From positions 1-63,875 of the IMG/VR virus record IMGVR_UViG_3300031975_002169: a stretch of DNA of 63,875 bases. One strand, given 5' to 3'. Below are positions 14,687 to 60,231 of the stretch, piece after piece; within the stretch, counting starts at the first letter, position 1; every line of letters starts with the position of its first letter. A model generated the notes under the pieces. That model was not told the DNA's origin and made no database searches. It saw only the letters and a list, made by a program, of their open reading frames with translations. The translations under genes were made by a program, and so were the position numbers. This DNA comes from a virus. Its lineage: Duplodnaviria; Caudoviricetes.

Positions 14687-15873
14687 CAGAAGCCCACTTC
14701 CTGCTCGTCGTCCGCCGTCAGCGTGGCCCGGATGCTCTTGGCCGATGCCTGTAGCTCGCGCCCCAGCTCCCGAATGCTCTCCACCGTGACATCGCTCGCC
14801 TTCGCCGCGATGGCGCCATCCAGCGCCTCCTTCACGCGCTTGGCTGCGCCCTTGAGCGCCTGGTGCGCACTGGTGGCCTTGGCCAGCCACGTTCCGTCAT
14901 CGCGCTCGGGCACCGTCTGGAACTTCTCCATCGCGGCGTCGTGGAGGTCCCTGGCCTTCACCAGCCACGGGCTCGCCATCTTGCCCACCACCGTGGCCAC
15001 CGCCTCGCGGTGCTCCGGCTTCTCCCAGAGGACGTGGCTGAGCACGTCGAAGTGCTCCTCGCTCACGGTGTCGTGGCCCATTCGCCATGCGTTGGCCTTG
15101 AGCACGCTCATCGCCGTGACCCACCTGCGTCCGCTGAGCGACACGCCCTCCTTGGCGAGGTTCAGCTTGAGCGTGAACATGCGCTCCGCGATCTGGTGGG
15201 TCACGCGCACCGCGCGCGCCTCAGCCTGAGCGATGCGCAACTCGTCCAGCGTGATGCTCGAGGTCGGGTTCCCGCCCAGCTCCCCACGCACCAGGCGCAT
15301 GAAATCCTCCTGGCCTGCCAACTCGCTCACCACCAGGCGCAGCGCGAAGCGGTCGTAAAGGGCAGCCAGGCCGTCCTCGGCAGGCATCTCGTTGGAGGCG
15401 CCCACCAGGCTCAGCAGCGGCACCTTCACCGGCGTCGCCCCGTTGTGCCACAAGCGCTCGTTCACGATGGTGAGCAGGCTGTTCAGGATGGCGCTGTTCG
15501 CCTTCCAGATCTCGTCCAGGAAGGCCACGTGCGCCTCGGGTAGCTTCCCAGCGGCGACGCGCTCGTAGCGGTCCTCCTTGAGGGCGCGGACGCTGACGGG
15601 GCCGAACACCTCCTCCGGCGTCGAGTACCGCGTGAGCAGCGTCTCGAAGTAGGTGGCTCCGGAGATCGCGCTCGTCCAGGCGCGCACGAGGGCGCTCTTG
15701 CTGGTCCCAGGGGGACCCAGGAGCAGGACGTGGGCGCCAGCCACCGCCGCCACGATCAGCGCCTCGATCTCGTTGTGCCTCTGCGCGAACGCGTTGCTCA
15801 GCTCGTTGTGAATGAACCAGAGCTTCGCGCGAACCAACTCGCTGTCGGCCACATCCTCGGTCTTCTTACCCAT
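14686..15873 (-). CDS. RavA-like MoxR AAA+ ATPase
   Basis: LLGPPGTSKS, LLTRYSTPEEVFGP, FLDEIWKANSAILNSLL, GASNE, ALYDRF. Confidence 0.92.
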   Translation of the reverse strand: MGKKTEDVADSELVRAKLWFIHNELSNAFAQRHNEIEALIVAAVAGAHVLLLGPPGTSKSALVRAWTSAISGATYFETLLTRYSTPEEVFGPVSVRALKEDRYERVAAGKLPEAHVAFLDEIWKANSAILNSLLTIVNERLWHNGATPVKVPLLSLVGASNEMPAEDGLAALYDRFALRLVVSELAGQEDFMRLVRGELGGNPTSSITLDELRIAQAEARAVRVTHQIAERMFTLKLNLAKEGVSLSGRRWVTAMSVLKANAWRMGHDTVSEEHFDVLSHVLWEKPEHREAVATVVGKMASPWLVKARDLHDAAMEKFQTVPERDDGTWLAKATSAHQALKGAAKRVKEALDGAIAAKASDVTVESIRELGRELQASAKSIRATLTADDEQEVGF

Positions 15874-15911
15874 GTTCGCTGTCTCCCTTGCTGCCGAGCA
15901 ACGCGCTCAGC
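15871..15911 (-). promoter_or_regulatory. Hairpin + AGCAAGGGAG leader, copy 1
   Basis: GCTGAGC-GCGTT-GCTCGGC-AGCAAGGGAGACAGCGAAC-ATG. Confidence 0.7.
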
Positions 15912-15951
15912 GTGAGCGAGTACGTAGCATAACGGAGCACCACCGAGCGAC

Positions 15952-15987
15952 AAAAAAATGCCGAGGGCCCGTCAAAAGACCCTCGGC
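15952..15987 (-). terminator. Intrinsic terminator after the 16010..16978 gene
   Basis: GCCGAGGG..CCCTCGGC stem followed by A-T7 on the minus strand. Confidence 0.75.
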
Positions 15988-16009
15988 ACCGATGTCGCGT
16001 GGCTGGCGG

Positions 16010-17048: not shown

Positions 17049-17735
17049 TCAGCGCTTCTTCGGCCAGGCGACCGGGGTCACCTCGGGGAAGTAGCGCGCG
17101 TGGTGCGCATCCCACGCCTCCTGCGTGAAGTAGGTCTTCCCGCGGGCTCCAGGCATCTTCACCATCAGCAGGGTGGTCCCGCTGCGCTGGGAGAAGTGCC
17201 GAACAGGCGCGTTCACGGCGTCGTATGTCATCCCGCGGAGGCGCGCCTCAGCCGCGAAATCCAGGCCGCCAGCGGTGGCAGCCATGGCGAGCAGCTCGTG
17301 CGTGAGGGGGTTCTCCTCGGCGCGGGGCTGTCCCTTTCGAGGGCTCTTCTCCGCCGCCGCCTCGGTGGCGACCTCGGTTTCCGTGGCTTCCTGCGCCGCC
17401 TGTGCAGCGCCCGCCTGTGCAGCGCGCTCGGCCACCTCCGCCTCGTGGCGCTCGGTGAGCGTGGCCACGATGGCCTCCAACGTGGCGATCACGCGCTCCG
17501 CCCAGGGCGCGACCGTCTTCCACTGCTGGGTCTTCCCCATGACGAACGGCCACTCCATCCCGAAGTCGTCCGCAAAGTCCGCGCCCAGCGAGTAGACCGC
17601 CGAGAGGCGCCTGTAGGCCTCCTTCGCGTTGAGGTCCGCAGGGTGCGCTGCGATCTCTCGCGCAGTCTCGAGCACCTTGGTGGCGGTGTTTAGGTTGGTG
17701 GCAGTCGCGCTGATCGTGGTGCTGTTCGTGCTCAT
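17049..17735 (-). CDS. Hypothetical protein, first gene after a putative early promoter
   Basis: Ala/Thr/Glu-rich ORF with SD AAGGGAG. Confidence 0.7.
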   Translation of the reverse strand: MSTNSTTISATATNLNTATKVLETAREIAAHPADLNAKEAYRRLSAVYSLGADFADDFGMEWPFVMGKTQQWKTVAPWAERVIATLEAIVATLTERHEAEVAERAAQAGAAQAAQEATETEVATEAAAEKSPRKGQPRAEENPLTHELLAMAATAGGLDFAAEARLRGMTYDAVNAPVRHFSQRSGTTLLMVKMPGARGKTYFTQEAWDAHHARYFPEVTPVAWPKKR

Positions 17736-17813
17736 GTTCGCTGTCTCCCTTGCTGCCGGCGTCCATCGCCTGGCGAGTCGTCGTCTACCGTGAGCACATC
17801 AGGGAGGCGAGCA
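17733..17813 (-). promoter_or_regulatory. Bipartite promoter TGCTCGC-N19-TAGAC plus leader hairpin, copy 2
   Basis: Boxes at 17807-17813 and 17783-17787; GCCAGGCG-ATGGA-CGCCGGC-AGCAAGGGAG. Confidence 0.7.
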
Positions 17814-32278: not shown

Positions 32279-32910
32279 CTACTTCTTCGGGCTCTCCTTT
32301 TCCAGAATCGCCGACAGCGCCTTCACCAGAGCGATCACGAAGCTCTTGGGCTGGTTGGCCAACGTCACGGCGTCCTGGTGACCATACCGCGCGCTGTAGG
32401 CGAGCAGCTTGATGAGGGTGGCGTGTTGCTCGGACGGCGATCCCTTGCGCCTGTGCGCCAGGGCCAACTCGTAGAGCATCGAGCGACCGCCACCCCCACC
32501 GCTCAGCCGTTTCCCTCCTCGCCCCCGCCCTCCTCGGTCTCCTCACCGAGCATGACGCGCGCGTAGTGGGTGGACACGATGTTGCGCCCGCGCTGCCCCA
32601 GCGCCTCCCAGAGCCACTCCCGGTGAGCCGTCTTGACCACGGGCTCGCCGTTGAAGCTGTAGATGCTCCGCTGCGCCATCATGAGGCCGAGGCGCGCGCC
32701 GTCGTTCCCCTTGGTCGCCTTGATGATGGCCATCTCCTCGCGCGTGCTCAGCTCGCGCACCGTGATGGTGAACGGAGCGGGGAAGACGCCCGGACGGCAC
32801 TGCTCCGGTTGCAGCTCCACCGTCTCGGAGTTGCGCGGCATGTCGCGCACCGAGCCGTCCTCCACCTTGCTGGTCCACTCCTGGAACACGTCGTCGAGCT
32901 TGAAACTCAT
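32279..32910 (-). CDS. Tail assembly chaperone GT (via -1 frameshift at GGGAAAC, 32509-32515)
   Basis: -1 shift gives GKRLSGGGGGRS in frame with ORF 32279..32479. Confidence 0.72.
32503..32910 (-). CDS. Tail assembly chaperone G
   Basis: 135 aa from MSFKLDD; ITVRELSTREE; between tube and tape measure; ends EGNG. Confidence 0.78.
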   Translation of the reverse strand: MSFKLDDVFQEWTSKVEDGSVRDMPRNSETVELQPEQCRPGVFPAPFTITVRELSTREEMAIIKATKGNDGARLGLMMAQRSIYSFNGEPVVKTAHREWLWEALGQRGRNIVSTHYARVMLGEETEEGGGEEGNG

Positions 32911-33068
32911 GCTGATCTCCCTTGCGTGGCACCGCCCATCGCAGTGCTCGCCGCCATCGTGACGGAAAAGCGAACGCCTCGCCAGGACCATCCCAACGAG
33001 GCGCTCGGGCACCGACCGAGGCAGTGCACTATCGCGACGCCGCAACGTGGCGAGCGGCGCGCGAGTCC

Positions 33069-38544: not shown

Positions 38545-38588
38545 GAGTACCTCCAGGGGGGAACGGGTGAATCCTAGCCTACTCGAGA

Positions 38589-44433: not shown

Positions 44434-44514
44434 CATTTTTCTGTCTCCCTTGCTGTCAGCGCCCTGCGCGCTGACGAGGATGTGTCTACCTGACGCCACG
44501 CAGGTGAGCGAGCA
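44434..44514 (-). promoter_or_regulatory. Bipartite promoter plus leader hairpin, copy 3
   Basis: TGCTCGC (44508-44514)-N19-TAGAC (44484-44488); GTCAGCGC-GCAGG-GCGCTGAC-AGCAAGGGAG. Confidence 0.72.
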
Positions 44515-44541
44515 TTATTTCGGCTCGCGTGCGTTTTTTTT

Positions 44542-45280: not shown

Positions 45281-45357
45281 CATCGTTCCTGGCTCCCTTG
45301 CTGCCAGCACCGCGCTGGCTCCCCTTGTCTACGAACTTCCCGTCGGGATGGCGAGCA
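45281..45357 (-). promoter_or_regulatory. Bipartite promoter plus leader hairpin, copy 4
   Basis: TGCTCGC (45351-45357)-N19-TAGAC (45327-45331); GCCAGC-GCGGT-GCTGGC-AGCAAGGGAG. Confidence 0.72.
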
Positions 45358-45383
45358 TTATTTTGCTCGGCATAGCATTATTC

Positions 45384-46523
45384 TCAGCGACCCCCAGTTC
45401 TGCTGGCGATTCGTGCGCCAGCGGCGTCGCGCTCTGCTCGGATAGCGCGCGCACGCGCCAGGACGGCCTCCTCCTGGGCTGGCGTGAGCTGTCCGGTGGC
45501 TGAGGCGGCGAGGGCGCTCCTGATGTCGGTGGGCTCGGGGCGCGTGCTGGGTGTGTTCGGCCACTCGGGGCGCCACGGGATCACCACCTCGCGATCGTTG
45601 GGGCGTGCGGGTGGGTGCTGGTAGCGGCGTCCAGCGCCGTCCACGAACTCCTCCCGCAGACCGCGAACCTGGCCATGTACCGCCAGGGAGTCCGGTGCGA
45701 CGCGGTTGTCCATCATGGCGAGGATCTTCTTCTGCCCACCGGGGAGGTGCTCCTCCTGCTGATGCATCACCTCCATCGAGCTGGCGTTCTGCGCGAAGGC
45801 GATCTCGGTGCGCACCAGGCGCGCAGCCCAGTACCGATGGCGCGAGAACAGGCCCTCCGGGATGTTGGCCACCTGGGTGCGGACCACGCGTCCGCCTACC
45901 ACGCGAGCCCGGAGGCTGACGTTGGGCCCCCTGGGTCCGCCGAGGCGCTGTAGCTCGTCGATCATCTCGGACTGGGAGGCGCCACGCAGGAGGCCAGCCT
46001 GGAGCACCTCCTCGACCTGGCGCGCGATGATGGCTCCGTAGCGGTCCATGGAAGTGGGGATGCGTCGGAGCAGCGCACCGCTCACCGTCCGCTCCGCGCG
46101 CGCCAGGCCCGTCACCTCGTCCAGCATCAGGGGGCGCGAGACGCCGGTGAACGCCTCCTCGAGCGCTGCCATGTGGCGCACGCTGGAGCCGTAGCTGGCG
46201 CGCACCGTGGCCATCGCGGCGTCGTGCGTGATGCCGCTCATGCGCGCCTCCGTGTAGGCCGTCACGAGCCGCACCTGGTGCCTGTAGCTCTGGAGCGACG
46301 CTCCGGTGAAGCGAGCCGATGGCCCCCCGTGTAGGCGCGCCTCGCGGCGCAGTCGCCGCTCCAGGTCGCGGTCGGCCTGGCGCAGCATCCGGACGACCTG
46401 GCGAGTGGCCACGCGCCCAGGCCCCTGGCGCATGTCGAAGCCCCGCTCGGCGCGCAGGAGGATCTCCTGGAGCACCGCCTCAGCGCGCGCGATGCGGTCG
46501 AGCAGCGGTAGGGGGGCAGCCAT
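45384..46523 (-). CDS. Minor head morphogenesis protein (SPP1 gp7 / Mu F-like)
   Basis: AARLVRTEIAFAQN, DNRVAPDSLAVHGQVR..F..HPPARPNDREVV. Confidence 0.85.
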   Translation of the reverse strand: MAAPLPLLDRIARAEAVLQEILLRAERGFDMRQGPGRVATRQVVRMLRQADRDLERRLRREARLHGGPSARFTGASLQSYRHQVRLVTAYTEARMSGITHDAAMATVRASYGSSVRHMAALEEAFTGVSRPLMLDEVTGLARAERTVSGALLRRIPTSMDRYGAIIARQVEEVLQAGLLRGASQSEMIDELQRLGGPRGPNVSLRARVVGGRVVRTQVANIPEGLFSRHRYWAARLVRTEIAFAQNASSMEVMHQQEEHLPGGQKKILAMMDNRVAPDSLAVHGQVRGLREEFVDGAGRRYQHPPARPNDREVVIPWRPEWPNTPSTRPEPTDIRSALAASATGQLTPAQEEAVLARARAIRAERDAAGARIASRTGGR

Positions 46524-46538
46524 CGCCCAACCCTACCA

Positions 46539-48155: not shown

Positions 48156-48167
48156 GGGGGCCTCCTA

Positions 48168-48362
48168 TCAGGGGGTCTCGCCGAACTTCGCCTTGAACTC
48201 GGCGTCGCGCTTGCGGCGATTCTCCGCCACCTCATCCCGACGACTGCGGATGTCGCGCTCGATGGCGTCCGGCTCCTCGCCAGCCTGAATCCGCTCGGCG
48301 ATCCACTCGCCGGCAGCGAGCAGGAGCCGAAGGATGGTGAAAACGGTGTTCGCGGTGTCCAT
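48168..48362 (-). CDS. Small amphipathic protein coupled to the lipoprotein gene
   Basis: MDTANTVFTILRLLLAAGEWI; TGATG overlap. Confidence 0.55.
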   Translation of the reverse strand: MDTANTVFTILRLLLAAGEWIAERIQAGEEPDAIERDIRSRRDEVAENRRKRDAEFKAKFGETP

Positions 48363-48799
48363 CAGCCGATCCTCCCGAGCACGAGTTGGAACGCTTCCCA
48401 CGCTGCTTTCGCAGATGCGGCAGCCGACGCGGTGGCAGCCAGCGCCTCGGCGAGGGCTGCCTCCGTGATCTCGCCTCGGCGAAAGGCGTCAGCGGCAGCG
48501 CGCCCCAACGTCTGAGCATCGCGCACCGCTTCGAAGGCCTCCACCAGCACGTCACAGGCCTCGCGCGCCGCACGCAGCGCCTCGCGCGCCTGGGCCACCT
48601 CCTCGGGGCGGTGCGCGGCGATGATCTCGCCCTCCACCCGATCGCAGGTGCGGACGCTCAGCTCGTAGGCTGGGTCCACCACATCCGTGACGGTGTTCAG
48701 CGCCTCGTCGATGCCGTTCGCGGTGTGCTGGGCGGAGCCGCACCCAGCGAGGAGGCACAGGGCCAGGAGGGCGGCGATGGGGGTGTGTGCGTTTCGCAT
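48362..48799 (-). CDS. Lipoprotein, helical
   Basis: Lipobox LLALCLLAG-C. Confidence 0.75.
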   Translation of the reverse strand: MRNAHTPIAALLALCLLAGCGSAQHTANGIDEALNTVTDVVDPAYELSVRTCDRVEGEIIAAHRPEEVAQAREALRAAREACDVLVEAFEAVRDAQTLGRAAADAFRRGEITEAALAEALAATASAAASAKAAWEAFQLVLGRIG

Positions 48800-48833
48800 C
48801 GGACGAGGCTACCACGAGCCGTCGTCCAGCGCC

Positions 48834-50291
48834 TCAGAGCGGAGTGGGGTTGTCGCGCACGCCGTAGGTAGCGGCCGTCCCGCTGCGCGTGAGGCTGGTG
48901 GCGCCCACGAACGGAGCCCAGGTGGCTCCGGGATCGCCACCATCCACACGCCAAGCGTTCGTCCAGTCCCCACCACTGGGGATGGACTCGAGCCGGCGAG
49001 ACTCCAGACACGCCTCGCTCAGCTCCCGCACCTCATCAGCGTTCAGGAGGCGCGTGACGTAGGCCGCCCCGTGAACGAAGCCACCCGTGTCGATGCCGTG
49101 CTGGTAGGCACCATCAGCCGCCGCACCGATCGACAGGTTGCCACCGGCCGTCTGGCCCGTCACCGCCGACGTGAAGAAGGCGACGTGCCGCTGCCCGTTG
49201 ATCCAGAGGATCGCCGTCGTGTTTCCGAACTCGTCGTAATTGAAGACAACCACGACCACGCAGAACTTGAGCCCGACGTCCGCCCCCGAATACTCGAACG
49301 TGCGGAGCGTACCGCCGCCGTCGTACATGCTCACACCCAGGCGCGTGACCACGTCCGCCGTGAAGTTGCCCGAGTAGCGGATCCCGAATCCGCCCACCCC
49401 GTTGATGGTCCCCATGACCCAACGGTTATTGAAGCTCGTCGAGACGGTGTTCGAGCCCACACGGACCACGGCGCACACCGTGTGCTGGTTCACCGCGTTC
49501 AAGGGGTCGCTGCCGAACCTGTAGTGACGCGTCGTGGAGAGCCCGGTGATCTCCTCCACCGAGGGGCCACCCCCCGAGGGCGTCACGCCAACGATGTCGG
49601 TCCCAACTCGGCCGAGCAACTCGCCATCGGCCACCGAACCCATGGTGAGCAGCGTGCCTCCGCTGATAGTGGAGCGGAGCCCACGAACGTCGGGAGAGGC
49701 CGGTGTGCCACCGAGCTGCCCAGCGACATCCGCCTTGTTCGCCACCAACGTGCCGAGGGTGTCAAGAGCACCGCTCACGCCAGCACCGGAGACGCCTGAA
49801 TCGTTGGTGACCTGGGACGCAGCGTAGTCGCCGCCGGCAGCCGCTACGGCCCCAGTGCGTCCGAACACGCTGCTCACGGAGCTGGGGATCGTACTGGGCA
49901 CCCAGGCCGAGCCGTTCCAGATGAGCGCCTGTCCGTTGGTGGGTGCGGCGGCGGAGATGGCGCGACCCTGGAGGCGCTCCACCGTGTTCGCCGCCGCTGG
50001 CCCTGTGGCATCCCCACCCAGCACGGTGGCACCGCCGCCACCGATGGCGCCTGCCGCTAGGAGCAGCGACACCAGGTCGCCGTCGCGGCTCTGGAGGCTG
50101 AGCTGCCGCCGGAAGGCTGCGACGGGAGCAGCCATCGTCCCTGACGTGTAGAGCACCAGAGGGCAGCCAGTGGCCTGGAGCCCTGGCACCGAGTACTCGG
50201 CGTCCGAGATGACGCGCCCAGCCTTGAGCAGCGTGGTGCGACCGTCGCCGGTGGGAGCGAAGCAGTCCTCGAGAACCAGATAGTCGGCCAT
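48834..50291 (-). CDS. Fibre-like virion protein with C-terminal LamG/concanavalin-like domain
   Basis: LGGDATG..TVERLQG, PTNGQALIWNGSAWVP, VSSVFGRTGAV fibre motifs; LWING..LSIGA..YVTRLLNADEV. Confidence 0.7.
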   Translation of the reverse strand: MADYLVLEDCFAPTGDGRTTLLKAGRVISDAEYSVPGLQATGCPLVLYTSGTMAAPVAAFRRQLSLQSRDGDLVSLLLAAGAIGGGGATVLGGDATGPAAANTVERLQGRAISAAAPTNGQALIWNGSAWVPSTIPSSVSSVFGRTGAVAAAGGDYAASQVTNDSGVSGAGVSGALDTLGTLVANKADVAGQLGGTPASPDVRGLRSTISGGTLLTMGSVADGELLGRVGTDIVGVTPSGGGPSVEEITGLSTTRHYRFGSDPLNAVNQHTVCAVVRVGSNTVSTSFNNRWVMGTINGVGGFGIRYSGNFTADVVTRLGVSMYDGGGTLRTFEYSGADVGLKFCVVVVVFNYDEFGNTTAILWINGQRHVAFFTSAVTGQTAGGNLSIGAAADGAYQHGIDTGGFVHGAAYVTRLLNADEVRELSEACLESRRLESIPSGGDWTNAWRVDGGDPGATWAPFVGATSLTRSGTAATYGVRDNPTPL

Positions 50292-50325
50292 GTGGCCAGC
50301 CTATCATCGCCCGAGGGCGCGCGCC

Positions 50326-51663
50326 TTAGTACGCGCCGATCGCAGTCGGGAGCGCAGTTCCGCCGCGCTGCGTGCTGAACCCGCCCACGTGGTTACCCAG
50401 GTCGCTGGCGCTAGTGAGCGCCCCGGTGCCACTCACCGTCATCTCGAGACCGGTGCCAGCACCACCGCCACGCAGGACGCACCCTTGGACCGCCGGCGAG
50501 GTGACAGGGCGAGCAGCATCGGGGCTCGCGAAGCGCACACCGCCGCTCGCCCCAGCGGCAGCCACCACGGTGGTGTCGCGCACCTGGGCGGCGATGAGGC
50601 CAGCGTTGCCGAAGAAGTCCAGGTTGACGCCCCAGCCGCTATCCACCGTGATGTCGCACCCGCTCACCTTGGTGCCCACCACATCACCGCCGACCACCAC
50701 GAAGAGCACGCCAGCAACGCGCGATCGGTGGATCGTGCTCCCGACGCACGAGTTGAACGACCCCTCGCCCAGCTCCACACCGATATCCACCTGGTTCGCC
50801 GCGCCGCTGTCGCCGAAGATGCAGTTCTCGATGCGGTTGCGCTGCCCGGTGGCCTGAGCGGCCGTCGCCACCGAACCGGCGCCGAGTGCGACGCTCGAGT
50901 AGGTGCGCAAGCGGCACGCGTTGAGCAACGCACCGTTATCCGTCATGCGCAGCATCGTCCAGAAGCCAGGGAAGTTGGAGACGGTCCCAGCGGACGCCTG
51001 GCAGGCGATGAGACAGCGCACCAAGCGTGCGCCGCCTGACACGTTGATGAAGCGGTTGGCGTCGCCGTCGAGCAGCGCACCACCAGGGTTCGAAGCCATC
51101 GTGATGGCCAAACGCTCCATGAGCCCAGCCACCTGGAGGGCCAGCATCTCACCCGAGGAGGGGAGCACCAGGCGTGTTCGATCGCCCTCGCCGCGAACCG
51201 CCACCGAGCCGTCCACCACGGTGGGTCCAGCCGCACCACTCGGTCGCAGCTCGTAGTCCCCTCGGAGCACGTAGACGCCACCACCCGTCACTACCGCATC
51301 GGCGAGCGCGTCGCGGTACGCGTCGCCGTCCCCGGTGTCCAGGTGCGTGCACGAGTCGCTCGTGTCGCCCGCTGGGGCGTTGCCCACCACGTAGAGCGGC
51401 GTGTGAGCATCCCCAGCCGGCCCGGACAGCGCACCGGATGCGGACAGGAGCCCCACCAGCGACCTGGTGGTGGGCGCCTGGATGTATCGAGCGAGCGCCG
51501 TGGCTGCCGGAGACCCATCCGTGAAGGCGAGCAGTGGGATGCCTTGCGCCTGGAGGTTGGGGATGTCCACCTGACCATCGTCGAGGAGCTGCCCAGCACG
51601 GAGCACCATGGGCCCGGTGGGGAGGTTGTAGACAGCGTCGTCGATCACGATGTAGCGCGCCAT
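50326..51663 (-). CDS. Spike/fibre protein with pectin-lyase-like beta-helix
   Basis: DALADAVVTGGGVYVLRGDYEL..VAVRGEGDRTRL then IENC/VSGC/VRDT repeats. Confidence 0.68.
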   Translation of the reverse strand: MARYIVIDDAVYNLPTGPMVLRAGQLLDDGQVDIPNLQAQGIPLLAFTDGSPAATALARYIQAPTTRSLVGLLSASGALSGPAGDAHTPLYVVGNAPAGDTSDSCTHLDTGDGDAYRDALADAVVTGGGVYVLRGDYELRPSGAAGPTVVDGSVAVRGEGDRTRLVLPSSGEMLALQVAGLMERLAITMASNPGGALLDGDANRFINVSGGARLVRCLIACQASAGTVSNFPGFWTMLRMTDNGALLNACRLRTYSSVALGAGSVATAAQATGQRNRIENCIFGDSGAANQVDIGVELGEGSFNSCVGSTIHRSRVAGVLFVVVGGDVVGTKVSGCDITVDSGWGVNLDFFGNAGLIAAQVRDTTVVAAAGASGGVRFASPDAARPVTSPAVQGCVLRGGGAGTGLEMTVSGTGALTSASDLGNHVGGFSTQRGGTALPTAIGAY

Positions 51664-51699
51664 GGTCCCGAGCCTATCAGTGCTCGGCCCTCGCTGCCA

Positions 51700-53337
51700 T
51701 CACCGGAAGAGAGGGTCCGCCTGTCGCGGGTCCTGCTCCCCATCACCAGCCTCGAGCCCCTCGATGTAGATGCGCGCCTCCTCGCGGGCGAACCAGCTCG
51801 CCATCAGCCTGTCGCCGGTGTGCGACTTGGGGGTGTACCCACGCATCTCGCGGATCCATGCGCGGATCTCGTCGTTGGCTGGCTCGCCCCCCTGGGTGGC
51901 AGGGATCACCCAGCGCGTCGCGCGCATCTCCACCGCCATCGTCTCCACACCGAAGTCCTCGGAGTGCTTCCCGCGCTTGCCGGTGCTGGTGGTGCTGAAC
52001 GGGATCACCGGGACGCCGCGCCCCTGCGCGAACTGGGCGATGAACGCCTGGGCAGCCACGGACTCCACCACGACGGTGCTCTGGTAGCGGATGTGGTGCT
52101 GGACGATGCGCTGGACGATCTCGGGGCCCTGCCAGCGCCCCGATTCGACGTTGACCACCAGGTAGCGTCGGTCCGGCAGGATGGCGATCGTGAAGAGCAC
52201 CGTGAGGTCGCTGTCCTCGTCCTGGCCCACCCCGAGGTCGACGCCGGTGTAGCAGGGGAGCAGCGGGCCTCCCCAGAAGGCCGTCGGTGCCTCGTCCAGG
52301 AAGCCACGCCCGAGCCCTTGCGCCAGGCAGGCGCGAATCCACGCCTCCTGGAATCGCGACGAGGCGTCCGAGTACGGCTTGCAGAGCCGCTTCCGCGCGA
52401 ACGCGGACGGCGTCATGTTGGCTGCGTCCTCCCGCAGCTCCTCCACCGGAATCGCCTCGGGCCAGAGCGCCTCCCAGCGGTCCTCTGGCGCCTCCGGGTT
52501 CAGGACGGCGCTCCAGACCTGCATCCCCCACGCTGGCCTCGAGCCCAGCGTGTGGAGCAGGTCTTCCTCGTGCCACGGCGTCCCTATGCACCAGACGCGG
52601 AAGCGCGTCTTGTCCCCCTGCGCGCGCGACTTGCGCCCCCTGGGGCCCTTGCGCGTGAAGACCTTGGTGTCGAACCAGCTCAGCGTCTTGGCGCGCTGCT
52701 CGGGGCTGGACGTGTTCTCCATGTCCAGCACATCATCGAGCACCACCACGTCCAGGCGTGCGCCCGTGATCGCCTTGGAGCCCGCACCGTAGGCGGCGAC
52801 GCTGGGATCCTTGGCGATGGTGGTGCGCGCGACGGTGCACTCGTGCGCGTTCCACTTCGCGCCCTTCTTCGGCACCAGGTGCGGGAAGACCTCGCGGACC
52901 CTGGGGTTGTGGAGGATGTGCGCCTGGACCTGCGCCAGCCGATCCATCGCCTGCCCATCGGTGGCGCAGATGATGGCGATGCGCGCGTTCGGGTTCTTCC
53001 CGAGGTGGTAGAGGATCCGTCCGACGATCTGCTGGGTCTTGCCGTGACCCACAGGCGCCATGATCACGCCGTAGCGGTTGCGGTCGAAGAACGCCTGCCA
53101 CTCCTCGTGATAGTCGGCGTTCTCGATGCTGTCGCCGGACTCCTCGTCCGGCATCGCGTACTCGATGAACGCGCTGGCGCCCACCACCGCATCCGGGAAG
53201 CCAACGATCTCCTCCCCGCGCGCCTGCCGGAGGTGGAGCTGACGCAGCGCCCGCGTTCGCTCCACCAACTCGGGCGCGCTGAGCTTCTCCAGCTCGACCC
53301 AGGGTGCAACCTCCTGGAGCGTCAGGAGCGAGGTCAC
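51700..53337 (-). CDS. terL: Terminase large subunit
   Basis: Walker A APVGHGKT, ITGARLDVVVLDD, IGTPWHEEDL, nuclease GVDLG..D, HTGDRLMASW. Confidence 0.93.
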   Translation of the reverse strand: MTSLLTLQEVAPWVELEKLSAPELVERTRALRQLHLRQARGEEIVGFPDAVVGASAFIEYAMPDEESGDSIENADYHEEWQAFFDRNRYGVIMAPVGHGKTQQIVGRILYHLGKNPNARIAIICATDGQAMDRLAQVQAHILHNPRVREVFPHLVPKKGAKWNAHECTVARTTIAKDPSVAAYGAGSKAITGARLDVVVLDDVLDMENTSSPEQRAKTLSWFDTKVFTRKGPRGRKSRAQGDKTRFRVWCIGTPWHEEDLLHTLGSRPAWGMQVWSAVLNPEAPEDRWEALWPEAIPVEELREDAANMTPSAFARKRLCKPYSDASSRFQEAWIRACLAQGLGRGFLDEAPTAFWGGPLLPCYTGVDLGVGQDEDSDLTVLFTIAILPDRRYLVVNVESGRWQGPEIVQRIVQHHIRYQSTVVVESVAAQAFIAQFAQGRGVPVIPFSTTSTGKRGKHSEDFGVETMAVEMRATRWVIPATQGGEPANDEIRAWIREMRGYTPKSHTGDRLMASWFAREEARIYIEGLEAGDGEQDPRQADPLFR

Positions 53338-55423
53338 GCCGCTGCGATCGCCCTGGTGAAGCTCAGCGTGGCCTCAGCCGCCGAGGCAGCGTGGGCACCC
53401 CTCACCAGGAGCCACGCCTCAGGCACGACCTCGCCGGCGAGCCCCAGGTCGTGCCGCTCGGCGCACGCCACCCCGCACGCCGCACCACCCGTGTGGGTGG
53501 CGACGAGCACCTGGGCATCCAGGCGGAGGGGTATCTGGCACGAAACGCAGCGCACGGGGTTCCTGGGGAGCAACTTCATGGGCTCCCCAGGTCATAGCAC
53601 GTGCGTTTCAGGCCGTCATCTCCCCTGGCGCAGTGCTACCGCCTCGACGGCTGCGATCAGCGGAGCGCACGTCTCGCAGTCCCGGTCCACCTCGCTGGTG
53701 TTGGCCACGTAGGTGCGCGCCGCACCCAGGACGGCCACCAGCTCGCGCACCCTGTTCTCCACCTGGCGCTCAGCCAGCATGGCGTGAGGCGACCCAGGCT
53801 CGAAGCTCGCGTGAGCCCGCACCAGGCGCATCACCTCCTCCACCTCGCTCACTTCACCCTCGCGGTCACGGGCAGCTTCGGCCAGAGTTCTTCGGGGATG
53901 TCGCCACCGCTCCAGACGTTGTGGCTCACGATGCGGGTGCCATCCAGCAGCTCGAACTCGAAGCGCTGCCCACCGAAGCCGAGGCCGTCCCTGGACCCGC
54001 CTGGCGCTGGCTCCTTGCCGATCGTGTAGAGGAAGCGCCTGGGGCCCCGCTCCACGATCACAGTGTTGGGACCCCTGGGCTCGAGGAAGTGGTGGCAGGT
54101 GAAGCACGACGTGCGCTTGGCGCCACCTAGCAGGTGATCGTCGTTGTATGGGCGATGGCATTCCGGGCACTCCTGGAGCATCGCCCCAGCCACCTTCGCC
54201 GACTTGGCTGGGCACCAGGCAGGCACCGATCCGTGCACGAACGCGACGCGCACCTCCGGCCTCCTGCCCAACACCGCGAGCACAGGGTGGCGGCAGAGGC
54301 GCCCCTGGCGATCGTTATCCACCGAGTGGTCGCACTCCTTGGAGCACTCCTCCCGCACGCCGCTTCCAGCGCACGGGGAGCACTGCTCTAGCGGCGCGTC
54401 GCCCAGGTTGCCCCACGGCTCCCGCTTCCCACGCCCATCGCACGCTGCGCAGACCATGATGTGCGGCGCGCTCACGAGATGCCTCCCTTGGCCAACTCGC
54501 TGAGGGTGCGGCGCAGCTCCGCGCTCTCCAGCTCCGCCTTCTTCGCCCTGGCCACCCAGGAACGCACCTGGTGCTCCAGCGCAGCGCGCTCGGCCACGAG
54601 CACCGCGTGCTCGTGCTTCGGCATCGCCCCCAGCGTGCGAGCCACACTGTTCATCCCGGAGAGGATGTCAGGGTAGTGCTCGTCGGTGACCACGGTGGCC
54701 GTCCAGACCCGATCCTCGGGGCGCTTCGCCGTCTCGTCCACCACCACCAACGCGAGGCTCTGCCAGGGCCCCAGCATCAGCCTCGCCGTCACGTGGTGGA
54801 GCACCATCTCCTTGGCGTCCTCGTCGCGCATCATCGCGCGCGTGGTCTGAACGCCATCGGGGTGGTCCTCCTCGGTGTTCGGCGTGAAGGTGGCGATGGT
54901 GCGGCAGGTGGGGCAACACACCGTCCCGTCGTGCGAGCGCACGCCGCTCTCGCCGCTCCAGCCGCACCCAGGGCACCCATACGTCCCGGCGCTCACGTGG
55001 ACACCTCGGCCGCCCTGGACACGGCCTCCGCCATGGCCTTGTCGAAGTCCGCGTTGAACCCGACGAGGTTCCCGCCCACCGCGCGATGCAGGATCACGGA
55101 CCAGATCCCGAATCGGCGTCGCGCGCTCACCGCGACCACACCCAACCCCCTCAGCGTCTTGTTCACGAGGCCACCTCGAGCGCCCCGTTAGCAAGGAGCG
55201 CCCTCACCACCTCTTCGCCGCTAACGGTGAAGTGGTGCAGCGTGTTGGGGTTGTCGATCACGCAGATGATCAGCGAGACGCCGCCGGCTCCGCACGTGCT
55301 CCCTATCGTGAGTCCTCGACCATCGGGCAGCGTCCCGTTCGCCCCATGAATCTGGAGGAACATCCTGTTGGGTGGCGCCTTGCGCACGCTCACCTGAGCC
55401 ACCGCCTCGTCCAGCTTTTCTCC

Positions 55424-55462
55424 CATCGTCGTCTCCCTTTGCTGCCACGGAACCGCCGTGGC
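55424..55462 (-). promoter_or_regulatory. Leader hairpin + AGCAAAGGGAG, copy 5
   Basis: GCCACGG-CGGTT-CCGTGGC-AGCAAAGGGAGACGACG-ATG; TTGCTC-N17-TACAAC upstream. Confidence 0.65.
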
Positions 55463-56099
55463 TCGGAACGCTCAGGTTGTACCGCTCCTGAGCTTGTCGA
55501 GCAACTCCCTGGCGATGGCCAGGCGCTCGTCCTTCGGGAGCGCGTTGATGCGCTCCGCCGTCACGTGGTTGTCCGCCGGCGAGTTGGGTACCATGCGCGC
55601 TGGGTTGCGCGGATCCTGCGCCCAGCGGCGAGCGTGTGGTGGGCAGAGATGCTTCCCTGCCGCCGGCTCGGAGGCGCACTTGGCGCAGAGCTTGGCGTCG
55701 CATGTCTTGCCAGCCTTGCGCCCCGTGAACTTCCAGTCGCAGAGCAGCGTCGCCAGCCTCCCGCACTCCGAGCACGGGGGCCGGCGACGCCCGCGCGAGC
55801 AGACGATGCCGATCGCCTTCCCGTCGTCGCTGTAGAGCGTGTCGCAGGTCACGCCCTCAACGCCTCCCTGCGCCGCGCCTCGTAGGAGGCGCGCTCACCG
55901 CCGTCCAGGGGCAGACCTGCGCGCGCGTAGTGCCTGAGCACGTGTTCCCAGGGGAAGTCGCGCGGGAGGTAGCGCAGCTCGCACGCCACCTCGTGGCAGG
56001 ACATGCCGTGACGAAGCCTGGAGTCCACGTTGCCGAACCCCGAACACTCGAGCGCATCGGGCTGGAACGCCTCTGGCACCGCCAGCACGCCGAAGCGGG

Positions 56100-56582
56100 T
56101 CACAGTGGGATCCTCCCGTACTTGACCGCGCTCTCCATGGCCTGTCGCGCCACATCCGGAGGCAGCCGGAAGAGGCCCTGAGCGCCCTTGTACGGGATCG
56201 GCGGGATGGCCACGCGCTCGCCGAGCAGCCAGCCCACCGGCCCACACCAGAACGGGTCCTCATGCAACCGCTCCAGCTTGGTGCGCACCTCCGCCGCTCC
56301 GGGCCCAGCGGCAGCCACGATGCGCGTGGTCCCCCTGTCGTCCCGGTACCCCAGCACGCGAGCGAGGCCCACGATGCCCGTGGGGCACTCGTCAGCGGGT
56401 GGCACGGGGGGGAGCACACCAGCCGCCGGCTCCCAGCCGCCGAAGTCGTACCGGAGCCCGGAGTGGAGCGCGATGCGGCAGCCGACGACATCGGCGTGAG
56501 GTGGCCATCCCCGGTTCTCCACCGTCTTGGCCCCGCTGAGGATGAGGTGTGCCCAGGGGCGCCAGAGCGACAGCGCCTTCAC
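56100..56582 (-). CDS. ASCH domain protein
   Basis: KALSLWRPWAHLILSGAKTVENRGW..IALHSG..GIVG..W..GPVGW..PIPYKGAQGLF. Confidence 0.88.
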   Translation of the reverse strand: MKALSLWRPWAHLILSGAKTVENRGWPPHADVVGCRIALHSGLRYDFGGWEPAAGVLPPVPPADECPTGIVGLARVLGYRDDRGTTRIVAAAGPGAAEVRTKLERLHEDPFWCGPVGWLLGERVAIPPIPYKGAQGLFRLPPDVARQAMESAVKYGRIPL

Positions 56583-57877
56583 CGCGTCTTCTCCGGTGCG
56601 GGTCCGGGGTCCCTGAACCCATCGAGCGCAGCGTGAGCGGCGTGCGCCCTGCCCTCGAGGAGGCGCACGCGCTCCGCCCAGCGCTTCACCTCGGCCTCCA
56701 GCTCGCGCACCCGCTGCTCAGCCCGGATCGCACGCACCAGGGCTGCCTCCAGCTCGTCCTTCGGCTTGTCGGCCTTCGCCTCGGCCGCCTCGTGCGCTGG
56801 CACCACGAGGAACGCGTAGTGAGTCGGGGAGTTGGCCTGGATGGTCTCGAGCTGGTTCCTCGCCTTGGCCTCGGTGGGGAACTCCGTGGCGTGCTCCCGC
56901 ACCGTCCAGACGCCCTGGCCCCAGTACGTCCCGTCGTTCACCCGCTGGACGCAGTAGGTGGGTGGCGCCTCACGTGGCTCGTAGTGGCGATCTACCGAGA
57001 GGGGTCGGTGCACCAGGTCCAGCAGGACCACGCACCACCGCTCCCGGCTCTTCGCGATGGAGGCCTCGTAGGTGTCCGTGACCTGGTCGTAGCTGAGGAT
57101 CTCCGCGCGCTCGCCGGCGAGGAACGTGGTGCCAGACGGTGGCCTGCGGAGGGTGTGGACGCTCCCCACCGCGAGCGTGGGGGGGTCTGCGATCACGGAG
57201 AGCACGTGATCGCGCGGCACACGCACCGAGAGGCCGTTGGTCAGGAGCACCAACACCTCCGCGTCGTCATCCTGGGGCGAGCCGTCCACGAGCCCAGGCC
57301 CGTGCACGCCTGACGGGTGAGTCCGCACGAAGACCTCTGTACCGTTCCTGAGTCGCTTTTCCGTCGTCATCAATCCTCCTCGATGTTCCACGATCCCACG
57401 CTGCTCCCGTTGGCGTCCGTGATGGTGCGCGAGTGCACCGGCCGGAGCTGGCCACGGTGAGCCAAGAGCTGCTCCTGTATGTCGTGGAGGAGCGCCGCGA
57501 TGTCAGCGCCGGTCTTCGCCCCACGGGTCCCCATGTCGATCTCCACCTTGAATCGGCGATTCATTTGTGGCCCCAGCCGCATCGTCCGCAGTGCCCACCA
57601 AGGCTGGGTTGGAAGTCGTGCTCGTCCCCGGTCGTGCTCCCAGGGCACCGGCGGCTCTTGGTGACGGGGAGCTGGCTCACCAGGTGAGCCCCCCACGCCA
57701 TGGCCAGGCCCAGTCGCGAGCGGAGGCTGGCGATGGACACCGCCTGCATCCGCACCCCCAACTCGAGGGCAGCGGCCTCGGCGAGCGCCTTGTCGCGCTG
57801 CGCCTGGCACTGCGCAGCGTAGAGGGCGAAGCCCAGCGAGAGCAGGGCCATAAGCCCCGCCATCACCCACGCAGCCG

Positions 57878-58330
57878 TCACGAGGGCACCGAGCTTTCCA
57901 GCCACGCGCCCAAGAGGTCGAGCACCTCGCGAGCCTCGCGCTCCTGCCCAGCTTGCATCAGCTCGAACATGGTGCCGCTCCAGCCGTCCTCCATGGCCTC
58001 GTCGCAGTAGGCGAGGCGGATGTTGCTGGACGCGAGCCAGGCGCAGAGGTCCGCCGTCATGTCGTCCACCATCCCCAGGTGGCTGGGCTCTAGGTCGCCC
58101 AGCTCGGTGCCAGGGTCCGCCGCCGCAAACGCGTCGAGGCCGCTCTTGATCATCTCGTACCGATGGTCGTCGGGCCCGAACTCGCCGTGTGCGTCCAGCA
58201 CCAACTCGATCGCCCAATCTGGGCGCCCATCCATCAGCGTCCAGAAGGGGTCGCCGTTGTCGCGTGAGCGGCAGACCATCAGCGAGCGGGCCGTCGCTGC
58301 GCGCGCGATCATTGCTTTCGTGATCTCCAT
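57878..58330 (-). CDS. Acidic protein, possible Ocr-like DNA mimic
   Basis: About 29 D/E versus 11 K/R; VDDMTADLCAWLAS..YCDEAMED..LMQAGQ..E pattern. Confidence 0.4.
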   Translation of the reverse strand: MEITKAMIARAATARSLMVCRSRDNGDPFWTLMDGRPDWAIELVLDAHGEFGPDDHRYEMIKSGLDAFAAADPGTELGDLEPSHLGMVDDMTADLCAWLASSNIRLAYCDEAMEDGWSGTMFELMQAGQEREAREVLDLLGAWLESSVPS

Positions 58331-60151
58331 CGTTCTTCCCTTTCTTGCGGCGCGCAGTGCGCCACTGGTGTGCTCGTACCAGGCGTCCAGGCCCGTCGCT
58401 ACTCCTTGGCGCTGACGCCGGCGAAGGCGCAGAGGGCCCGGTGGTGCTCGGCGGACAACCCCAGGCGCTCCCTGGCACCTGGGCGGTCGAGGATGGCCCA
58501 GAGGGCGCGCAGCCCACCACGCACCAGGCGCTCGTCGCGCATCACGCGCTCGACGTGCTGGTTGGCGAACTTCCGCCCCAGGGGGCGCGTGTCGTCCTCG
58601 CAGGTTTCCACGGAGCTTCCCTCGGAGGTTCCCTCGGAGCCGGCGCGCTGCGCCGCCACATCAACGGCTCGCAGGCGCGCCAGCTCCGCATCGTCGATCA
58701 CCGACCAGCCCATCCAGCCCATCACATCTCCTCGAGGATCCGTACCCGATTCCGGTGCGTGTCGCTATCTGGTGCATCGCTCAGCCACTCCGTGAGGAGC
58801 GTGCGACCATCGTCGGTGAGTGTTCCTCGTAGCACCATCACCACCGAGTCGTCCACGTTGGTGAGGCACCCAGGGCACCCCACCTCGCCGGTGTTCCTGG
58901 TGAACGGTCGGTTGCACGTGGGGCAGTGCGCACCCTCGCTCCCGTCGAATGGCCCCTCCTCGCAGTGCGGGCACTCGCGGATCACCACCGCGTCGTCGTC
59001 CACGTAGGCGTCGTCGCACGAGAGGCACACCACCAGGGTGGTCCCCTCGCGCACTGCCGCCTGAATGGCCTCGGCAACCTGGCTCTCAGCCTCGGCGCGC
59101 TTGGCCTGGGCCTCCTGGCGCTTGGTGGCCTCCTGGGCCTCCCGCTGAGCCAGCTCTGCGTCGGTAGGGGCAGGCGCCAGTCCGGGGACGTCTGGCAGCG
59201 TCAGCCCAGGAGGGGCCTGGAGCTGCTCGGTCCAGAACTCGGCCCCATCGGGCATGGTGTTCCCCGACGACCACCCGTACCCATCGTCGGTGTCCGTGTG
59301 GAACCCAGCGCCGAACATCACGGTGCTCCGCACCGCCAGCACGGGCTCCAGCCTGGAGCAGTGCGCGCGGAAGTCCTGCCAGCGCACCAGGGCGAGCCCG
59401 TACTCCGGGCCCCACCCATCTCGGCGCGGCTCGGCGCGGAACCAGTATCGACCCGGCGTCGCAGGGACGCCCTTCTTCCACTCACCCATCGTGATTCCCT
59501 TTCTTCGGCTCATTCCAGTGCCAGAGCGCGGCTCGGATGCGCTCCATGGCCCCCTCTCGCTGCTCAGCAGTGAGGCGCACCGTGCCGAGGCCGTTGCGCG
59601 TTGCCGTGCGCTGGATCGAGTCCGGGTCGGTGAGCGACGTCGCGGCATCCACCACCTCGGTGAACGTCGCCGCATCCAGCATCACGGCATTCGCCGCAAT
59701 CGCGAGCGCGACCTTGTTGGGGTAGTACAGGATCAGCTCGTGCCATAGCTCGCGCTGGCGCTCGGCGAGCGTGCTCACGCTGCCACCGCCGCCTTCGCGC
59801 CGATCATCAGCGCGTAGCGCGATCGGGTGTCCACGTAGGCCGTCGTCCAGTATCCGAGCCTGCGGAGGCGCGCTGCGCACGCTGCCCTCGAGGCCTCGCA
59901 GTTGAAGCCGAGGTGCGCGCCGCTCATCGGTCCGCCGCCCTCGCGGCGCCAGCACGGGGTCAGGATGATCATCGCCCCTCCGAAACCACGCCGTCGAGGC
60001 GGATCAGCTCCAGCCTGATGCGGTAGCTCTGCCCATCGCGAGCCACGATCACCAGGCGCGAGGCCGGGAGCACGGTGGTGATGCGCCACTTGCCGGGGTA
60101 GCGCTCGTTCAGGATCTCGCAGTAGGCACCCACAGGCGGCATCGGCGTCTT

Positions 60152-60231
60152 CATGGCCTTGGCTCCCTTGCTGCCTCGGCACTGCGCCGGGGCTCGATGG
60201 TCGTAGCGGAGGCCGGCGACGAAGGCGAGCA
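60152..60231 (-). promoter_or_regulatory. Bipartite promoter plus leader hairpin, copy 6
   Basis: TGCTCGC (60225-60231)-N19-TACGA; GCCCCGGC-GCAGT-GCCGAGGC-AGCAAGGGAG. Confidence 0.68.

Follow-up and report, generated by a model that had tools for sequence, protein, structure and literature searches.

A repeated promoter, hairpin and ribosome-site cassette in an uncultured marine phage, a candidate portable expression head

What does a short hairpin do when one phage carries it in front of six start codons, with stems that differ in sequence but the same layout? The question is raised by the IMG/VR virus record IMGVR_UViG_3300031975_002169, the sequence of an uncultured marine phage (Caudoviricetes), which we analysed over its whole length of 63,875 bases (69% G+C) and call the window. 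An earlier note on this DNA, made from the letters alone, had described six minus-strand leaders in which a hairpin runs into a short motif and an ATG, and had listed a 5' stabiliser, a translational enhancer, a boxB-like antitermination site and a protein-binding site as possible functions. We found the six leaders as described, with the arms listed there, and we observed that their parts recur at regular spacing on one strand, that the stems covary, and that equivalent cassettes occur in related phages. In addition, each unit appears to include a -35/-10 promoter upstream of the hairpin, which the earlier note had missed, so the repeat would be a promoter-leader cassette and not only an RNA leader. 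Probably, the cassette is a portable expression head, in which a sigma-70-type promoter gives a transcript that starts at or near a 5' hairpin and continues into a strong ribosome site; of the functions listed before, the 5' stabiliser or translational enhancer fits this best.

The hairpin and its ribosome site

The motif AGCAAGGGAG occurs in five exact copies, all on the minus strand (Table 1; units are named after the start of the gene behind them), and the sixth copy reads AGCAAAGGGAG. When up to one mismatch is allowed, the window contains 16 matches against 5.4 expected, a number that none of 100 shuffles reached. The distance from this Shine-Dalgarno (SD)-like motif to the ATG is 6-9 nt in all six units, instead of the 7-9 nt given earlier. 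All six motif sites abut a hairpin with a stem of 6-8 bp and a loop of 5 nt. Four of the stems are perfect (6, 7, 7 and 8 bp, G-U allowed), while unit 17735 has a bulged A and unit 60154 a C/A mismatch. Hairpins as good as these, with a 5-nt loop, end at 2.2% of the minus-strand positions; six out of six is therefore far beyond chance.

The six sites were picked by the flanking motif alone and not by the hairpin, and their alignment was fitted to a covariance model, which was used in place of MAFFT alignments that were structurally wrong for such short hairpins. When a covariance model is made from two copies alone, the remaining four rank 3, 5, 6 and 7 in a search of the whole window. Among the six copies aligned to the model, 97.6% of the cells are paired compared with 71% in shuffles, and five of the seven stem pairs change on both sides, with none of 500 shuffles reaching the covariation score. 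The pairing falls to 22-54% when the partner is slid by 1-3 columns. The statement that the stems differ and keep their pairing was thus borne out, and the covariance model, which the earlier note had proposed to build, recovered held-out copies here. Rfam, which it had also proposed to search, gave no match at the gathering score over the whole window on both strands. Near-identical sequence is contained in four DNA sequencing runs of one seawater study and in no RNA run among those listed; compared over 44300-60300, they show two single-base differences (54746 and 59985), neither of them inside a unit, and hence no covariation at the population level.

The arms are 6-8 nt long and their inner sequence is not conserved. 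Because compensatory changes are found both within this genome and across the relatives described below, the sequence comparison indicates that the hairpin is selected for its structure and not for its sequence. The motif behind it reads as an SD site in the usual AAGGGA style of this phage, in which AAGGGA(G/A) at the right distance also precedes many other genes without a hairpin. Going by the standard anti-SD sequence, it can pair through one G-U pair with the usual CCUCC tail of 16S rRNA. We also looked for a conserved anti-SD pairing that would sequester the SD and found short complementary stretches in some copies, which are not consistent.

The loops bear on whether the hairpin acts during transcription, as a boxB- or put-like antitermination site or in pausing or attenuation, read by the RNA polymerase or by an N-like protein. 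A promoter-proximal position, a pentaloop in all six window copies and a terminator just upstream of one unit (15873) would suit such a site. But the six loops all differ (GCGTT, ATGGA, GCAGG, GCGGT, CGGTT and GCAGT), and their length varies from 3 to 7 nt in the relatives. Even the constant 5 nt of the window, which we confirm in all six copies, could shrink to 3 nt in three of them if the first and last loop bases (G..T) pair. Moreover, no U tract follows the hairpin, every copy is fused to an SD at 0-3 nt, a coupling that is unnecessary for antitermination, and the 6-8 sites per genome include some inside operons without a promoter. We regard a role during transcription as very improbable, and the boxB-like function of the earlier note is unlikely in view of the differing loops and the fusion of each site to an SD at a gene start. 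A protein that recognises the hairpin by its sequence fares no better, as neither stems nor loops are conserved.

Promoter boxes and the cassettes of related phages

Upstream of the hairpin, the six units contain a T[CT]GC[CT]N hexamer, 17 nt (18 in unit 15873), and a TA[GC]NNN hexamer, which is followed by the hairpin after 6, 6, 7, 7, 9 or 13 nt, and an A/T run precedes the -35-like hexamer in most units. In three of the six, an inverted repeat GCGAGC-N8-9-GCTCGC was seen by eye around the -35 box. The pattern TYGCY-N18-TASRM, which was derived post hoc after the units had been seen, has eight matches in the window against 1.08 expected, and none of 100 shuffles reached eight. Five of these matches are cassette units and a sixth lies upstream of the capsid gene. 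A sigma-54 reading of the upstream box was rejected by eye, the GG/GC spacing being wrong.

Of the other matches, two have no cassette behind them. The one at 40135-40162 (minus strand; TTGCTT-17 nt-TAGGAT) is a better sigma-70-like promoter with the same type of -35 box, which precedes the major capsid gene by ~100 nt and lacks the hairpin and SD, and the one at 11550-11577 (minus strand; TCGCTC-17-TACGA) lies inside the open reading frame (ORF) 11258-11944 and could be a chance match or an internal promoter.

To judge from its capsid sequence, the phage is one member of a large uncultured family, in which over 100 capsid proteins share 52-86% identity with the window capsid, many of them on contigs of 55-68 kb. 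A capsid search of a large protein collection and an alignment of the relatives' capsids led to 61 IMG/VR loci, and six near-complete records were compared with the window (G000), namely G001 to G005 and G009; the closest capsid relatives (68-86%) lie outside this comparison. The capsid identity to the window is 55% for G001, 60% for G002, 59% for G003 and 53% for G004. In some sources, capsid relatives carry the name 'N4-gp56 family major capsid protein', and one of the relatives is assigned to a Polyangiaceae metagenome-assembled genome, a label that points, if only weakly, to a Myxococcota host.

None of the 61 loci or the near-complete records contains the exact window motif, but the architecture is present: G001-G004 have cassettes of the same layout with different box, stem and SD sequences. 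G001, a complete genome with terminal repeats, has eight cassettes with hairpins of 6-7 bp and five different stem sequences, each composed of a T run, a TTGCCA-like -35 box, exactly 17 nt, a [CT]A.... -10 box, 5-9 nt, the hairpin, GG[AC], GAAGGAGAAG, 4-7 nt and the ATG. G003 has six units, three from a scan and three found by eye, with AG[CGA]CAAGGAG or a related SD behind hairpins of 5-6 bp and TTGCnn-16/17-[TC]Annnn upstream. All five start-linked AGCAAGG(G)A sites of G002 lie behind hairpins, and two clear promoters (TGGACA/TAGACG-16-TAAGAT/TAGAGT; boxes by eye) stand 12-14 nt upstream of the hairpin. In G004 there are four or five units of a hairpin with GAAAGGGAA. A search for A/T-rich 8-mer repeats in the relatives returned the G001 cassettes only.

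The cassettes are also strand-specific. In a strict scan, G001 had 10 hits on its coding strand and 2 on the opposite one, with 0-1 in shuffles; the same three counts were 4, 0 and 0-2 for G003 and 3, 0 and 0-1 for the window, where it takes perfect stems and a 5-8 nt gap only. Counted by motif alone, the start-linked sites that have a hairpin are 7 of 8 in G001 (GAAGGAGAAG), 5 of 5 in G002 (AGCAAGG), 4 of 6 in G003 and 4 of 5, plus one long imperfect palindrome, in G004, and none of these four motifs, which were chosen after the units had been seen, occurs on the non-coding strand of its genome. With a looser regular expression for the SD, the hairpin enrichment is weaker (binomial p from 0.04 to 4e-5 in G000-G004) and there is none in G005 and G009.

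Stems differ freely across the relatives while their pairing is kept. The MoxR ATPase gene has a hairpin and SD leader in four genomes, with GCTGAGC/GCTCGGC in the window, GCCGC/GCGGC in G002, GCGCC/GGCGC in G003 and a long imperfect palindrome in G004, and G001 and G003 each have a cassette, with a stem of its own, in front of a small protein related to the window ORF 5665-6036. When 32 small loci from five phages are offered to the covariance model (R1), 22 are recovered at E up to 0.45 and ten are missed. In these 22 units, 97.7% of the cells are paired compared with 62% in shuffles, all seven pairs change on both sides, and 40 cells show a double change compared with 12.6 in shuffles (0 of 500 shuffles reach this), figures that are inflated and no unbiased test, the relatives' units having been picked partly for their hairpin and the alignment fitted to the model. 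The G-U cells (four) and non-pairs (three) among them do not show which strand folds. In G003, the 3' leader and the first codons (AGCCAAGGAGAGACCCAG-ATG-ACCCAGA) are identical at the starts 2206 and 4538 (loci L382 and L384), while the proteins behind them differ, which suggests recent copying of the leader together with the gene start.

These comparative data support box 1 as a likely -35 element (TTGCnn in G001 and G003; TCGCnn or TTGCTC in the window) and box 2 as a likely -10 element with an invariant A at the second position, at a spacing of 17 nt. In sigma-70 geometry, transcription starts about 7 nt after the -10 hexamer. This would place the start on base one or two of the hairpin for the G001 units and for four of the window units, and ahead of the hairpin by a few bases for the others, with predicted leaders of 36-43 nt.

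Other searches gave little. Megablast of 20 kb against GenBank phages found no match, tblastn with the large terminase found only 14 records (<60% identity, partial cover), and ATPase-based scans of viral, metagenome and genome contigs returned only relatives of at most 46% identity in which the motif is absent. Single-protein scans of IMG/VR yielded one 44% relative for the capsid and nothing for the terminase, and R1 had only weak, chance-level matches on the loci from these scans. An exact search for GGCAGCAAGGGAG-N6-9-ATG in IMG/VR returned 104 stretches with one match each, which show neither the cassette hairpin geometry nor multiple copies and were judged to be chance. The co-occurrence of the window genes g6502, g6036 and g32910 with cassette-bearing relatives is confounded by relatedness.

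How the cassette may work

As an expression head, each unit would be a self-contained cassette of ~85 nt that is read by the host RNA polymerase. It would consist, in order, of the A/T tract; a sigma-70-type promoter with the -35 box T[CT]GCnn, the 17(18)-nt spacer and the -10 box TA[GC]nnn; a transcript start at or within a few bases of the short GC-rich hairpin; the abutting SD AGCAAGGGAG; and the ATG 6-9 nt on. Only the shape of the hairpin would be under selection, and the hairpin would most likely have two physical effects: a stem-loop near the 5' end would shield the short leader from decay that depends on that end, and the same structure would insulate the ribosome site from pairing with sequence upstream of it. 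Any gene behind the cassette would then be expressed strongly and predictably. Stem-loops and 5' untranslated regions (UTRs) are among the features that protect bacterial mRNAs from RNases, and the RNases E, J and Y depend on a 5' monophosphate, according to the sections of the review used here (PMC7509114). A 5' hairpin that is kept by its structure only and is followed at once by an SD resembles 5'-terminal stabilisers, and we therefore read the cassette as a portable expression head.

Several observations weigh against this reading. A generic scan with the sigma-70 (E. coli-type) consensus finds no promoter in the unit regions, and the boxes are weak by E. coli standards, with three to four of six matches in the -35 box and never a T at the last -10 position. 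On the window genome by itself the promoter reading would be weak, because the pattern is post hoc and the generic scan is empty. The cassette counts of G005 and G009 are at background. No promoter could be recognised for some units of hairpin and SD, namely the window copy at 5230 and the G002 ATPase leader, and the gap between the -10 box and the hairpin widens to 9-14 nt in G002 and in units 55426 and 15873; therefore, the hairpin cannot always be exactly 5'-terminal. Insulation, or protection after upstream processing, would cover such units. In folding predictions, which are not decisive, the SD has an unpaired probability of 0.36-0.88, and the minimum-energy fold keeps the hairpin in five of the six predicted transcripts and loses it in one. 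In the part of the same review drawn on, a stem-loop too near the SD lowered the stability of one B. subtilis mRNA (PMC7509114). Finally, conservation extends past the SD core to AGC on the 5' side, MCAG on the 3' side and GCC/GGC at the base of the stem, and AGC and MCAG are conserved beyond what pairing with rRNA needs.

This last point would be expected if the hairpin and its conserved single-stranded flank (GGC-AGCAAGGGAG-MCAG) were a recognition site for a trans-acting factor. Candidates would be RNA-binding proteins or nucleases, of the phage or of its host, that act on a whole set of mRNAs together at the ribosome site, comparable to T4 RegA/RegB or to the Aca2-type helix-turn-helix (HTH) proteins on 5'-UTR hairpins. 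The flank motif differs between the relatives at constant layout, as expected if site and factor co-evolve, and the 47 of 83 ORFs without a Pfam match leave room for the factor. T4 RegB itself cuts GGAG in the SDs of early mRNAs, with the sequence context choosing the sites, as stated in the excerpt of the report relied on here (PMC3014915). Set against this, neither the stems nor the loops are conserved, in the window or in the relatives, and no RNA-binding, RegA/RegB-like or Aca-like family was found in the PHROGs and Pfam matches. The flank is also largely an extended SD, and SDs of the AAGGGA type serve many genes that have no hairpin. We consider a factor of this kind unlikely.

A related and rather doubtful idea, to which we give slightly less credit, is that the shape-only hairpin at the ribosome site is a lineage-wide mark by which a phage or host factor tells the phage early or accessory mRNAs from others. 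Such a mark might spare these mRNAs from a shut-off nuclease or an RNA-targeting defence, or might favour ribosome loading, with the flank co-evolving in each phage.

Genome setting, genes behind the cassettes and known counterparts

Positions 1-280 of the window are repeated at 63596-63875 with 4 mismatches over 280 nt, and a ParB/methyltransferase-like gene spans the record ends (1-1462 and 62865-63875, minus strand). The record is therefore a complete genome, terminally redundant or circularly permuted, though its IMG/VR class is linear. The minus strand carries nearly all genes with high third-position G+C. Read from high to low coordinates, the gene order starts with small ORFs without a family match, including an Acb2/Tad1-like protein, and continues with the large terminase (51700-53337), the portal, a MuF-like protein, a block of small ORFs, the scaffold, the major capsid (38653-40038), tail and baseplate genes and an amidase. 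The last genes encode a MoxR ATPase, a VWA protein, a PD-(D/E)XK exonuclease, a Sak4-like protein, replication proteins, an HNH protein and methylases. The PHROGs and Pfam matches of the window ORFs, of which 47 of 83 have none in Pfam, include neither a sigma factor nor an RNA polymerase family, and a tRNA/tmRNA scan of the window found none.

Table 1. Coordinates in the window of the six units, the looser copies and the neighbouring signals
Feature	Position	Strand	Description
Terminator-like hairpin	15957..15990	minus	intrinsic-terminator-like, 14 pairs, with T run; just upstream of unit 15873; T run doubles as A/T tract
Unit 15873, boxes	15921..15950	minus	-35 TCGCTC (15945-15950), 18 nt, -10 TACGTA (15921-15926), 9 nt to hairpin
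Unit 15873, hairpin	15893..15911	minus	GCTGAGC-gcgtt-GCTCGGC, 7 bp, one U-G
Unit 15873, SD and start	15871..15892	minus	AGCAAGGGAG (15883-15892), 9 nt, ATG of MoxR-type ATPase gene (14686-15873)
Unit 17735, boxes	17782..17810	minus	T run upstream; -35 TCGCCT, 17 nt, -10 TAGACG, 7 nt to hairpin
Unit 17735, hairpin	17755..17774	minus	GCCAGGCG-atgga-CGCCGGC, 7 bp, bulged A
Unit 17735, SD and start	17733..17754	minus	AGCAAGGGAG (17745-17754), 9 nt, ATG of 228-aa ORF, no family match
Unit 44436, boxes	44483..44511	minus	AAATAATGC, -35 TCGCTC, 17 nt, -10 TAGACA, 7 nt to hairpin
Unit 44436, hairpin	44455..44475	minus	GTCAGCGC-gcagg-GCGCTGAC, 8 bp, perfect
Unit 44436, SD and start	44434..44454	minus	AGCAAGGGAG (44445-44454), 8 nt, ATG of 142-aa ORF, no homologue in relatives
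Unit 45283, boxes	45326..45354	minus	AAAATAATGC, -35 TCGCCA, 17 nt, -10 TAGACA, 6 nt to hairpin
Unit 45283, hairpin	45303..45319	minus	GCCAGC-gcggt-GCTGGC, 6 bp
Unit 45283, SD and start	45281..45302	minus	AGCAAGGGAG (45293-45302), 9 nt, ATG of 74-aa ORF, no homologue in relatives
Unit 55426, boxes	55476..55504	minus	-35 TTGCTC, 17 nt, -10 TACAAC, 13 nt to hairpin; within 3' end of upstream ORF 55472-55852
Unit 55426, hairpin	55444..55462	minus	GCCACGG-cggtt-CCGTGGC, 7 bp
Unit 55426, SD and start	55424..55443	minus	AGCAAAGGGAG (55433-55443), 6 nt, ATG of 87-aa ORF; large terminase 51700-53337 downstream
Unit 60154, boxes	60200..60228	minus	-35 TCGCCT, 17 nt, -10 TACGAC, 6 nt to hairpin
Unit 60154, hairpin	60173..60193	minus	GCCCCGGC-gcagt-GCCGAGGC, 7 bp and one C/A mismatch
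Unit 60154, SD and start	60152..60172	minus	AGCAAGGGAG (60163-60172), 8 nt, ATG of 61-aa ORF (59969-60154)
Looser copy, no promoter boxes	5228..5263	minus	hairpin GCCGGC-gac-GTCGGC (5249-5263), AGGAAGGGAG (5239-5248), 8 nt, ATG 5230; model rank 8
Further copy	32908..32947	minus	hairpin GCACTGC-gatgg-GCGGTGC (32929-32947), 2 nt, CGCAAGGGAG (32917-32926), 6 nt, ATG 32910
CTTTCCGTCTC-type copies	41025-41035, 38585-38595, 35742-35752, 32959-32969	minus	

The genes behind the units fit the earlier description as heads of non-structural clusters only partly, since the block headed by unit 55426 continues as far as the terminase gene, and two other units, 45283 and 44436, are placed between the MuF-like gene and the head genes, where they nevertheless precede small accessory ORFs. 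Of the six genes directly behind the cassettes, five lack a homologue in the six related genomes. Between the conserved MuF-like gene and a conserved 241-aa head-region gene, at 42764-45283 (minus strand), lie nine small ORFs without homologues in the six relatives. Cassettes 45283 and 44436 are located in this island, which looks like a set of moron-type insertions with their own promoters.

Such variable genes raise the question of a role at the DNA level, either as a recombination hot-spot that shuffles accessory genes, as proposed for the promoter-early stem-loop (PeSL) cassettes of T4-type phages, or as an extruded promoter hairpin, as in the early promoters of N4. The lack of homologues behind five units and the placement of two of them in the island would suit the first, and PeSLs likewise combine an A/T tract, a sigma-70-like promoter, an SD and a start codon near variable ORFs, as far as the portion of the paper used here goes (PMC4122927). 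The 'N4-gp56 family' name given to the capsid relatives would suit the second. However, the depletion of homologues (one of six cassette-led genes compared with 33 of 80 ORFs overall, 47 of 80 being without) is not significant, and recombination needs sequence identity, whereas the stems diverge with their pairing kept, which points to selection on structure. No ORF is longer than ~790 aa and none matches an RNA polymerase family, so a virion polymerase of the N4 type is absent. Together with the ordinary two-box promoters upstream of the hairpin, the lack of a giant polymerase gene rules out an N4-type hairpin promoter, and for a role at the DNA level as a whole we see little likelihood.

Some neighbouring genes deserve mention in their own right. 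The MoxR-type AAA ATPase (bpMoxR domain, E 1e-56) and the VWA-domain protein form a cassette-led pair (13142-15873, minus strand) that is kept in five of the six related phage genomes, an unusual conserved module for a phage replication region. Directly upstream of cassette 60154, a 112-aa ORF (60262-60600, minus strand) matches the Acb2/Tad1 hairpin domain (PF24729, E 1.4e-6, just above the cut-off) and may encode a sponge-like anti-CBASS or anti-Thoeris protein.

Beyond the six units, the window contains less regular relatives of the cassette. The looser copy before 5230 that the earlier note had pointed out is real and is indeed looser, and the further copy at 32910 sits behind the TTTTCCGTCAC motif of structural-gene intergenic regions. 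Hairpins of 7-10 bp that abut a variant SD (AAGAAAGGGAAG, CAAGGGAAGGGAAG, GGAAAGGGAAAG and GAAAGGGAAG) precede other genes on the minus strand at approximately 58337-58365, 9532-9560, 60609-60640 and 13137-13160, with no AGCAAGGGAG flank and no promoter boxes. A perfect hairpin of at least 7 bp ends within 8 nt of 11 of 50 SD-led candidate starts, compared with 7.4% expected per random window. A second repeated signal occurs in the structural-gene intergenic regions, where a strong terminator-like hairpin is followed by CTTTCCGTCTC (two exact copies and two with two mismatches), and TAGGATTC is found twice near it (38569-38576 and 40132-40139). With two mismatches allowed, this 11-mer is not enriched genome-wide (14 against 16.6 expected) and only its intergenic placement stands out; these signals may be late promoters or terminator tails.

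How does the cassette compare with what is known? We consider it real, conserved in its lineage and mechanistically plausible, and at the same time an ordinary kind of phage expression signal that would not surprise a specialist and holds no new biology, as similar promoter-leader repeats are known from T4-type and cluster K phages. Full-text literature searches, which were aimed at analogues rather than at the family itself, found no description of the phage family or of the cassette. Its value lies in defining the putative early and accessory-gene promoters and leaders of a large unstudied family of uncultured high-GC phages of ~55-68 kb, and cassette maps could help to annotate gene starts and operons in related metagenomic phages.

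The PeSL cassettes described by Comeau et al. 2014 are, in the passages considered here, short repeated modules with an A/T tract, sigma-70-like -35/-10 boxes, a 17-nt spacer, an SD and a start codon, present in many copies per genome, with boxes that vary by phage lineage and often before variable small ORFs (PMC4122927). They resemble the window units in all of this. PeSLs are reportedly also the subject of Arbiol et al. 2010. In contrast to the window units, the stem-loop of a PeSL is a terminator that lies upstream of the promoter (PMC4122927), whereas the window hairpin lies 6-13 nt downstream of the -10 box and abuts the SD; only unit 15873 has an additional terminator upstream.

The start-associated sequences (SAS) and extended SAS (ESAS) of cluster K mycobacteriophages, to which the earlier note had loosely compared the leaders, are alike in layout. 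Following the parts of Pope et al. 2011 that concern them, they are asymmetric SD-containing sequences a few nt before a start codon (mostly ATG), in one orientation, absent from most other phages and preceded directly by an inverted repeat in a subset of sites (PMC3203893). The likeness ends with the sequence. The SAS has a 13-bp consensus, 5'-GGGATAGGAGCCC, 3-8 nt before the start codon, where the window has AGCAAGGGAG at 6-9 nt, and the ESAS has imperfect arms of 17 bp that are conserved within subclusters and do not covary, their departures from the consensus not keeping RNA pairing, for which its authors favour a DNA-binding protein (PMC3203893). The window units, with arms of 6-8 nt whose sequence is not conserved and covaries in five of seven pairs, differ from the ESAS and include a putative promoter of their own.

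Two further systems share single parts with the cassette. The nut boxB of lambda, likewise a small promoter-proximal RNA hairpin with a five-base loop, has a conserved loop sequence that is read by the N protein and a boxA partner, whereas the window loops all differ, their length varies in the relatives, and the element is tied to gene starts. Closer in kind are the 5'-terminal stem-loop stabilisers of the E. coli ompA leader, reportedly described by Emory, Bouvet and Belasco in 1992, and of the phi10/gene 10 leader of phage T7. As is predicted for the window units, they place a short stem-loop at or near the 5' end of a short leader, with an efficient ribosome site next to it, and depend on structure over sequence. 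Unlike them, the window cassette has a 5' end predicted from promoter geometry instead of one mapped by experiment, its hairpin touches the SD without a spacer, and it forms a multi-copy family kept across a phage lineage instead of a single leader. It offers a clean natural example of a promoter, a 5' hairpin and a ribosome site in one compact module, in which the hairpin appears to be kept by structure alone, and a natural counterpart of the engineered insulators that combine a 5' hairpin with a ribosome-binding site.

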